Shown here one piece after another: positions 3,614 through 62,822 of a stretch of DNA of 64,000 nucleotides. The stretch lies in contig DEGR01000048.1 of the NCBI GenBank assembly GCA_002351535.1, forward strand, positions 21,214 through 85,213, given 5' to 3'. Under the pieces are notes generated by a model that made no database searches, had not been told where the DNA came from, and saw only the letters and a program-made list of their open reading frames with translations. Position 1 is the first letter of the stretch. Each line of letters begins with the position of its first letter. The DNA is from Lachnospira sp. UBA2821 (lineage in GTDB: Bacteria; Bacillota; Clostridia; Lachnospirales; Lachnospiraceae). Position numbers and translations under genes: made by a program.

Positions 3614-3766
3614 AAAAATACCTCCATTTTTAACATATGTACAGCTTCCAATACAATAATAATTTTATCATATAACAACTTTTTTAACAAGCTTAGCTTA
3701 TTCCACATCATTATAATATTTTTGTACTAATAATTCTAAACAAAACTACCGAATTGCAAAAAAATG

Positions 3767-3797
3767 TTGACATTAGTACTACTTTGGTGTTTATAAT
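3767..3797 (+). promoter_or_regulatory. Sigma70/SigA-like promoter with no downstream CDS
   Basis: TTGACA at 3767-3772 and TATAAT at 3792-3797. The 19-nt spacing is longer than optimal. Confidence 0.55.
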
Positions 3798-3802
3798 ATA
3801 CA

Positions 3803-3906
3803 TGTAAACAAAAACATAAACCCATATCGCATTTTTGTTTATAACACATCCACAAAATACTTTTTTATTTGCCGGTACATTTACCCATGTACCGGCTCTT
3901 TCTTTT
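3803..3906 (+). ncRNA. Candidate ~100-nt small RNA
   Basis: Lies between the promoter above and a plus-oriented terminator; internal 10-bp stem 3805-3814/3832-3841; the only early ATG is followed at once by TAA. Confidence 0.4.
3871..3906 (+). terminator. Intrinsic terminator, plus orientation
   Basis: Perfect 10-bp stem gccggtacat/atgtaccggc, 6-nt loop, followed by tctttctttt. There is no U-tract in the minus direction. Confidence 0.8.
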
Positions 3907-3919
3907 ATATTTCCACATT

Positions 3920-4470
3920 ATATACTCAACTTCCCACAGTGATAAATCATAAAAATATATGCTATATGTATGCATACGATATTAATATTGCAACTTGCCA
4001 TAAATTACTAATTTGTCGATGCCGTTTTCCGCTTATGTGATTATTTGTGTTCATTCGATATTGAACATCTACGCAAGGTGTGCGACTATTACACACACTC
4101 GATTTATGACGTGTCATGTGTGGGAGTTATGCCGTTCTACTGCTAAAGCCGGTGCGAAAAATACTCGTTCAAGCAAGAAAAATTATATCTTTATATAAAA
4201 TTAAATTGCGCGTTTGTATTTTTCGCACCGAATAAGCTCTGCAGTAGAATGGCATTTACTCCCACCCGACTAAGGAATTATGAGAGCGTTTGTAATAGCC
4301 GTACACTCTTGCATATCTGTTCACTTAACGAATGGACACAAAATTTAAGCGGAAATACGTCATCTGACAAATTCACGTAATTTATGCAAAATATTGCAAT
4401 ATTAATACTGATGCATACATACTCCCGTACTATAATATGTGATTTATCACCAAGGAAAGTTGAGTTATAT
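3920..4470. repeat. ~550-bp imperfect inverted repeat (long rod-like hairpin) of unknown function
   Basis: Co-linear complementary blocks, e.g. 3924-3932/4457-4465, 3939-3949/4440-4450, 3980-3993/4394-4407, 4129-4143/4241-4255, 4150-4164/4216-4230. Confidence 0.9.
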
Positions 4471-4477
4471 ATTATCT

Positions 4478-5386
4478 TTATTCTTTGTCTGACGAAATGT
4501 AATCAAGTTTTGGATTCTTCACAACTACTTTAGTATTCTCTGATACGGATTCTGTGATAAATGCATTTCCACCAACTACAGTTCCTTTTCCAACGGTTGT
4601 ATCACCACCAAGAATGGATGCTCCCGAATAAATAGTTACGTAGTCCTCTATATTAGGATGCCTTTTGGTTCCTTTAAGTGCCTGACCGCCTCTTGTTGAC
4701 AGACCTCCAAGAGTAACTCCCTGATATATCTTCACATGTTCACCAATGATAGTAGTCTCACCTATTACAATACCCGTACCATGGTCAATAAAGAAATATT
4801 TTCCTATAGAAGCTCCGGGATGTATGTCTATACCTGTCTTACTGTGTGCATGCTCTGTCATTATTCTTGGTATAAGAGGCACATTAAGAAGATACAGTTG
4901 ATGTGCTATCCTGCTGACCATAATCGCATAAACCCCCGGATATGAAAAAATTATTTCATCAAGGCTATACGCTGCAGGGTCTCCTTCATATGCAGCCTGG
5001 ACATCTGTATTTAAATATTCTATTATATCAGGTATTTTATTCATAAACTTATCCGTTATTACGTCGGCTTTCTGCTGCATCTGTTCATGATTCATTTTTT
5101 CCATATCAATATCATTACAACAACGATATGCCTTAACAATCTGACTGTTAAGAATATATTTTATACTTTCGCATATATCACCAACATAATATTTTATATA
5201 CTCGCTTTTTAACTTCTTCTGCTCAAAAAATCCCGGAAATAATATTTTTTGCATAAGGTCTATTACTTTTATTATTTCGTTTTTATTAATCAGAGCTCCT
5301 CTGTCTATCTTGGTTATCCCCTCGTATTTCTCATAACTATTTACAATTCCTGTAACAACATTATCAATATCCATATTAATCCTCAT
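4478..5386 (-). CDS. cysE: Serine O-acetyltransferase
   Basis: AAYEGDPAA, GIDIHPGASIG, FFIDHGTGIVIGET and KRHP hexapeptide-repeat motifs; likely start is the second Met (MDID). Confidence 0.93.
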   Translation of the reverse strand: MRINMDIDNVVTGIVNSYEKYEGITKIDRGALINKNEIIKVIDLMQKILFPGFFEQKKLKSEYIKYYVGDICESIKYILNSQIVKAYRCCNDIDMEKMNHEQMQQKADVITDKFMNKIPDIIEYLNTDVQAAYEGDPAAYSLDEIIFSYPGVYAIMVSRIAHQLYLLNVPLIPRIMTEHAHSKTGIDIHPGASIGKYFFIDHGTGIVIGETTIIGEHVKIYQGVTLGGLSTRGGQALKGTKRHPNIEDYVTIYSGASILGGDTTVGKGTVVGGNAFITESVSENTKVVVKNPKLDYISSDKE

Positions 5387-62756: not shown

Positions 62757-62822
62757 AAAACTTCCCGCAGCAGCAAATAATATACTATTGGATATTATTA
62801 AAAATACGCTACGGGAAGTTTT
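62757..62822 (-). terminator. Large-loop terminator-like hairpin after the surface-protein gene
   Basis: aaaacttcccgcagc ... gctacgggaagtttt; the single mismatch is a G-U pair on the minus strand. Confidence 0.55.

Follow-up and report, generated by a model that had tools for sequence, protein, structure and literature searches.

We have found that the long hairpin beside a cysE-like gene in the 64,000-nucleotide stretch of Lachnospira sp. UBA2821 DNA analysed here (the window) is probably, at odds that we put near 70%, a non-coding, non-autonomous, MITE-like foldback element occupying positions 3924-4465, whose hairpin is kept by recombination between its two arms. An earlier note on this DNA, made from the sequence alone, had offered four options for the hairpin: a large undescribed structured ncRNA, an RNase III substrate, a cruciform DNA site or a foldback mobile element. 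The last of these fits best, because the sequence is multicopy, ends in terminal inverted repeats of insertion-sequence (IS) type, is bordered by a target duplication and is accompanied by derivatives that have lost internal parts; the idea with which the note led, a single novel ncRNA gene, is not supported in that form.

The palindrome is imperfect, and the co-linear helices that the earlier note had listed are all present (Table 1). The hairpin does lie in the span of 3920-4470 originally given for it, but the element itself is confined to its 542 bp and the outer letters of that span belong to the TATAT flanks. When folded as RNA, the plus strand reaches -235.2 kcal/mol (dinucleotide shuffles, -112 +/- 6; z = -20.4) and the minus strand -245.0 kcal/mol (shuffles, about -120; z = -19.0), so that the impression of a fold far from random holds on both strands. 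A search of Rfam at E <= 1 returned no family for the element, the matches being chance ones to plant and animal miRNA hairpins at 25-35 bits, against gathering scores of 89-140, and it bore out the initial judgement that no SRP, 6S, RNase P or tmRNA signature is present; ROOL, GOLLD and OLE likewise gave no match at their gathering scores. Nor is there a credible ORF, as had also been supposed: none is conserved across the ten full-length copies described below, among which indels break the frames. We considered, and rejected, a coding start formed by a Shine-Dalgarno sequence and ATG in the right loop, since the start varies among copies (ATG, TTG, GTG or CTG) and early stops follow. The element lies just 3' of the cysE-like gene, but that gene is on the minus strand and its stop codon is 12 nt from the element end; it had been placed about 5 nt before the start of the hairpin.

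Table 1. Features of the foldback element and its surroundings (window positions unless contigs are named)
Feature	Position	Strand	Remarks
Full foldback element	3924..4465	.	542 bp; 1 of 10 full-length copies in the genome
Left target-site duplication, TATAT	3919..3923	.	5 bp; read from the sequence; length as in parent-type IS
Right target-site duplication, TATAT	4466..4470	.	5 bp; length as in parent-type IS
Left terminal inverted repeat, ACTCAACTTCCCACAG	3924..3939	+	like IS end ACTAAAACTTCCCACAC
Right terminal inverted repeat, plus-strand reading CCAAGGAAAGTTGAGT	4450..4465	-
Inverted repeat	3924-3949/4440-4465		26 nt, 85%
11-bp perfect inverted repeat, GTGATAAATCA	3939..3949	.	left breakpoint zone of inversion in another strain
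Partner of 11-bp repeat, TGATTTATCAC	4440..4450	.	right breakpoint zone of the same inversion
Inverted repeat	3965-3975/4411-4421
Inverted repeat	3980-3993/4394-4407		14/14
Inverted repeat	3999-4008/4377-4386
Inverted repeat	4026-4035/4346-4355
Inverted repeat	4044-4060/4326-4342
Inverted repeat	4078-4100/4284-4306
Inverted repeat	4129-4143/4241-4255
Inverted repeat	4150-4164/4216-4230		15/15
Conserved inner module	4095..4288	.	194 nt; near-invariant asymmetric loops CTCGATTTATGACGTG (left) and CTAAGGAAT.ATGAGAG (right)
Variable AT-rich apical loop	4175..4207	.	33 nt; between invariant CTCGTTCAAGC (4164-4174) and GCGCGTTTG (4208-4216)
Metatranscriptome-covered stretch	3934..4425	.	adaptor-joined ends 3998, 4298, 4424/4425
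cysE-like gene	4478..5386	-	hexapeptide / SATase_N, just below Pfam cut-offs; outside the element
Full-length copies	contigs C45, C51, C72 (three), C27, C14, C69, C53, C19

A count of copies in the host genome (2.53 Mb in 83 contigs) found ten of full length, 534-543 bp long and 76-89% identical to the window copy, and the element is thus multicopy and not a unique gene. At least three more copies, on C28, on C69 and at window 62758-62821, are internally deleted but keep both ends, and the last of these (C45:83971-84034) is a mini-derivative of about 65 bp, reduced to its pair of terminal inverted repeats, AAAAACTTCCCGCAG...CTACGGGAAGTTTT. The full and deleted copies are spread over nine contigs and every one of them is intergenic, with neighbouring genes that may be divergent, tandem or convergent and to which the element bears no consistent orientation. 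The rod-like fold is common to all the full copies (-226 to -279 kcal/mol). Copies match one another at about 80% in one orientation versus 68% in the other, indicating that the asymmetric loops were inherited and did not arise from independent duplications. A few other Lachnospiraceae hold more copies; BLAST found the element in none of the 40 nearest relatives, a strict pattern search of 401 genomes of the order matched only its own genome, and a phage collection gave zero matches to it. Eight IMG/VR matches to the apical motif, which might have indicated a link to phages, proved to be chance, falling inside a gene for a gp32-like single-strand-binding protein. We also note a scaffold gap (8 N) between AAATTTCCCACA and TGTGGGAAATTT (G000:C71:138-170), where another copy, either of the element or of its parent IS, has probably collapsed.

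The ends of the element tie it to a particular type of transposon. Its termini, ACTnAAACTTCCCACA, are like those of a 1.6-kb IS4-superfamily insertion sequence; copies start with A(C/T)nnAAACTTCCCACA and finish with the complement, a likeness to the IS end ACTAAAACTTCCCACAC. In relatives this IS end bounds a 1588-bp insertion sequence with 5-bp target duplications (TTTTT, GCTTT, AAGTT), whose transposase hits NCBIfam NF049925 (IS4 family) at 530 bits as well as the Pfam families DDE_5 and DDE_Tnp_1, and a 15-mer of the end occurs in 22 of 401 Lachnospiraceae genomes versus 2 for the reversed control. The genome of the window itself carries a complete related IS at C26:1-1592, beginning at the first base of that contig, with a related but somewhat different end (ACTCAAACTTCGCAC) and an intact NF049925 gene (C26:177-1505; 603 bits, 469 aa open). 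The IS that matches best, with the ends ACTAAAACTTCCCACAC, lacks its interior in the assembly, and the transposase was not found in either of two other rumen MAGs that carry the element. Beyond the termini we see no similarity between the interior of the element and the IS, and the element is therefore not a simple deletion derivative of it. As for the 5-bp duplication, it is exact at two of the ten full copies (TATAT in the window and ATATA at C72:57672-58208), holds at four of five positions at C72:2565-3106, at the C51 copy and at the deleted derivative on C28, and can no longer be recognised elsewhere. No empty site was found: all strains sampled are filled at the window locus, the G041 orthologue of a second locus (L047) holds a deleted copy, the flanks of a third (L046) are missing from G042, and same-genus genomes without the element gave no corresponding empty site that could be aligned.

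Six contig ends of this assembly (the starts of C13, C29 and C62 and the ends of C54, C80 and C81) stop 13-19 nt inside a repeat ending in ACTAAAACTTCCCACAC, and a high-copy IS4-family element with these ends breaks the assembly of the genome. At least four other terminal sequences recur at its contig ends, for example GTAACAGTTCAGCCTTCCGGC, CTCTCGGAATCTC, GAGGCATCATCAGTATGTGT and CCTTAACTTTTCTTTTTTGT, a sign that this 2.5-Mb genome carries many IS elements of varied kinds.

We infer from the ends and the duplication that the element is mobile. Most likely an IS4-superfamily transposase, acting in trans, inserted it at an AT-rich intergenic site and so generated the 5-bp duplication; its termini of 14-17 bp are those of the 1.6-kb IS4-superfamily IS that is also represented in the genome. 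Because nearly the whole of the element is an inverted repeat, its two arms recombine with each other. Reciprocal exchange between the arms flips the interior, an outcome seen twice, and non-reciprocal exchange may keep the arms complementary, yielding apparently compensatory substitutions that favour neither strand.

The two flips are of different extent. At a pair of orthologous loci, L042 (MAG SUG268) and L043 (rumen MAG RUG12830), the flanks are 92% identical and the element is co-linear over its outer ~95 nt, while flipping one interior raises the identity of the inner ~400 nt from 0.46-0.74 to 0.92-1.0. At the window locus, a 2391-nt contig from metagenome run X10, at full depth, joins the reverse complement of 3939-4020, with 0 mismatches, to 4451-4700, and a second contig from that run joins 3948 to the reverse of 4421. 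The junction lies within the perfect 11-bp repeat (Table 1), and the right terminus in X10 retains its own variant sequence, so that the change is an inversion within the element rather than a new insertion. Seven other metagenomes have the orientation of the window. Each of the eight shows a single orientation at full flank depth, with no mixture in any (these are contigs only, from which rare minorities would escape), suggesting that flips are rare events. The apex, too, can be lost: at G041:C113:7244-8821, orthologous to the copy on G042:C120, 228 nt are missing across a junction with 8 nt of microhomology, which is an example of palindrome-stimulated deletion.

Whether the structure is maintained or merely decaying can be judged from the copies, and the earlier note's view that it is maintained was borne out. 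Across the ten copies, 93.5% of cells are paired (86.8% in shuffles), and double changes occur in 72 of 185 pairs against 29.3 +/- 3.6 in shuffles, none of 500 of which reaches 72, and against 13-24 for slid partners. In the outer stem, 83% of positions are paired inside copies and just 50% are identical among them. The arms truly co-evolve, and they do so without strand preference. Among the 128 pairs predicted on both strands, 20 copies give 2322 Watson-Crick, 67 G-U, 63 A-C and 95 other combinations; our attempt to call a functional strand from G-U against A-C gave no signal, as had been anticipated from the occurrence of wobble pairs in both orientations. Exchange and conversion between arms would be a sufficient, strand-neutral source of this compensatory pattern. 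Given that there is no strand bias and that the arms recombine, maintenance of the hairpin need not depend on selection for an RNA fold.

The element is nevertheless represented in RNA. Contigs bearing the strain-specific SNPs of the locus cover nearly all of it in three bovine rumen metatranscriptomes, at a depth of 14-53, whereas the flanks (3653-3907, and 4469-4860 in cysE) have a depth of 0. The suggestion that the hairpin is co-transcribed with cysE thus finds no support: the element is transcribed, or its RNA persists, independently of cysE. Of the adaptor-joined ends, that at 4424/4425 recurs in two runs, none can be assigned as 5' or 3' from the library data, and adaptor orientation indicates fragments from both strands. 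RNA of the element probably stands above its neighbours because a 250-bp RNA helix is stable; it may be a substrate for RNase III and may affect neighbouring genes. Coverage of the copy on C51 in the RNA data is low and partial. Inside the element we count 7 promoter-like sites (5.7 +/- 2.4 in shuffles), and these are not conserved among copies or in other species. Outward promoter-like sites are found at the two ends, at 3917-3945 on the minus strand and 4444-4473 on the plus strand (TTATCA-17-TATAAT, with 10/12 matches, and TTATCA-18-TATATT), built from the subterminal repeat and the AT-rich target duplication; to judge from their sequence they could drive transcription into neighbouring genes. 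We also observe, outside the element at 3767-3906 on the plus strand, an orphan TTGACA-17-TATAAT promoter followed by a clean terminator (stem 3871-3896 and a T-run), a candidate sRNA of about 100 nt whose sole Rfam match is weak (CyaR-like, 29.4 bits against a gathering score of 47) and whose depth is zero in four rumen metatranscriptomes.

One part of the element does not fit so easily with recombination alone. Conservation is far higher in the core (about 3990-4400) than in the outer stems or apical loop, and the unpaired stretches CTCGATTTATGACGTG, CTAAGGAAT.ATGAGAG and CTCGTTCAAGC...GCGCGTTTG are near-invariant over three species, as is a single bulged A. The bulged A, in CTGACA opposite TGTCG, is conserved across genera, as are the loops of the inner module. 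A general rule that loops are more conserved than stems did not survive averaging, by which paired columns score 0.74-0.80 and unpaired ones 0.66-0.69; the conservation concerns particular loops only. Related hairpins exist without IS-type termini: the megaplasmid of Lachnospira eligens ATCC 27750 carries a rod of 531 nt with cls on one side and a NUDIX gene on the other, and Agathobacter rectalis has one, with other, GC-rich outer stems, between proS and cca. In these two species the apical loop has just 3-4 nt. A second copy on the L. eligens ATCC 27750 megaplasmid, unannotated, ~210 nt long and consisting of the inner module only, lies between genes for a GH1 beta-glucosidase and an AAA ATPase (NC_012780.1, about 500.0-500.3 kb; L114:1400-1735). 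Searching with a covariance model built on the inner module gave 1-2 copies each in 3 further genera of 130, making 4 of 131 in total, and one of these copies in another genus again has the AAGCTTCCCACA end.

The distribution of the inner module is thus patchy, like that of mobile DNA, yet the module is constrained beyond what pure conversion predicts. Frequent conversion between arms should erase small asymmetries, and as these have been kept, some selection on structure or sequence is likely; the module is under some sequence constraint. It is conceivable, although we would bet against it, that the inner module has a function of its own as a nucleic-acid element not described before, whether as a structured RNA transcribed in both directions or as a DNA hairpin recognised by a protein. 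If so, the module would spread by means of borrowed transposon ends and long spacer stems, its orientation being reset by recombination between the arms.

It could be argued that the conserved core, and especially the inner module of ~190 nt, is a genuine structured ncRNA gene, acting in trans or in cis, that was caught between IS-type ends and for that reason became multicopy, and that selection on the RNA keeps the hairpin. The abundance of its RNA, far above both flanks in three rumen metatranscriptomes, would fit with this, as would the recurrence of ends at 4424/4425, since discrete ends could mean a dedicated transcript. So too would the near-invariant asymmetric loops and bulge, flanked by covarying stems across genera, and the existence of the module without IS-type termini. 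We nevertheless think a gene of this kind unlikely, as G-U pairs are at the level of A-C with no strand preferred, RNA fragments come from both strands, the orientation to neighbours is inconsistent and the core itself flips, only 4 of 131 genera have the module, Rfam holds no such family, and the promoter-like sites are neither above shuffles nor conserved. Rather less probable still is that the hairpin acts as single-stranded or cruciform DNA, recognised by a transposase or host protein for transposition, replication priming or recombination. A symmetric spectrum of mismatches is what would be expected of a structure on both strands or of a cruciform, the bulges and loops are conserved, and rearrangements of a kind that hairpins stimulate, the inversions and the apex deletion, were seen. 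However, IS4-type DDE transposases, such as those of Tn5 and Tn10, work on double-stranded ends without needing an internal hairpin, the core-less derivatives retain only termini, showing that the ends are not defined by the core, and no candidate partner protein adjoins the copies.

The occurrence of the asymmetric interior in both orientations (L042 versus L043, and the window versus X10), along with the outward promoter-like hexamers at both ends, raises the question of a programmed invertible switch, or inverton, that redirects a promoter or terminator to one or other neighbour. We give this very little credence, because the breakpoints differ (the 11-bp repeat by the terminus here, a ~30-bp repeat ~95 nt inside in L042/L043) and their sequences are not conserved among copies, no recombinase gene adjoins any copy, and each of the eight metagenomes holds one orientation at full depth. 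As to the view that this is a foldback artefact of assembly, or an inverted duplication that arose once and is decaying, the palindromic nature of the sequence alone would recommend it, and we attach next to no probability to it; it is already refuted by the ten diverged copies within the genome, by the independent assembly of the locus in more than ten metagenomes and by the presence of related elements in finished genomes. Recombination between the arms of a mobile foldback element, and not selection on RNA, explains the maintained hairpin most simply.

Long, stable stem-loops are the typical fold of MITEs, and MITEs are transcribed (PMC3184786); the features of the element described here match those of bacterial MITEs. 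The Correia elements of Neisseria (CREE/nemis) are likewise non-coding MITEs with terminal inverted repeats at dispersed intergenic sites; their transcripts form hairpins open to cleavage by RNase III, and the part lying between the repeats can invert (PMC10969869, citing Elbeyioglu et al. 2017; PMC3184786). Correia elements, however, are ~100-155 bp long with inverted repeats at their ends only, whereas here 542 bp are palindromic from end to end, with IS4-type termini, a 5-bp duplication and a rumen Lachnospiraceae host. The bcr1 repeats of the Bacillus cereus group are also intergenic mobile repeats of a Firmicute that are transcribed, have 5-bp direct repeats and show compensatory changes that keep the structure double-stranded (PMC3184786). 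They differ from our element in being ~155 bp long, in having a two-hairpin, cruciform-like fold and in lacking any sequence similarity to it. We know of no parent IS with the same ends for bcr1 and of no report that it flips. Eukaryotic Foldback and Galileo elements consist largely of very long inverted repeats and readily recombine and invert (PMC2775673, PMC3688188), but the likeness is one of analogy only, since these are eukaryotic and kilobases long, with internal tandem repeats and transposases of P-element or MULE type. The tie to the 1588-bp IS4-superfamily IS of Lachnospiraceae (NF049925) consists of the terminal 14-17 bp (ACTAAAACTTCCCACAC) and the 5-bp target duplication; unlike that IS, the element lacks a transposase gene, and there is no relation between the two interiors. 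Finally, 6S RNA and other rod-like ncRNAs share with it long irregular helices and conserved internal loops, but the element is multicopy, strand-neutral and invertible, has IS-type ends and matches nothing in Rfam. We regard it as a new family of bacterial MITE, unusual in its length, in its end-to-end palindromy and in containing a conserved module that also occurs outside transposon ends.

What looked like an orphan structured RNA of 550 nt is a repeat family, and a tempting false lead is thereby removed. The case also shows that covariation alone is not proof of selection on RNA where the pairing partners can recombine with each other. The constraint on the inner module that is common to Lachnospira eligens and Agathobacter rectalis is left as a concrete and testable residue. 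An unusually long, fully palindromic MITE family is now documented in rumen Lachnospiraceae, and the likely type of its parent IS can be named. Assemblies break at such elements, which can also carry promoter-like sites facing outward and put RNA helices of 250 bp beside genes; they are for these reasons relevant to the annotation of rumen and gut bacteria and to studies of their gene expression.
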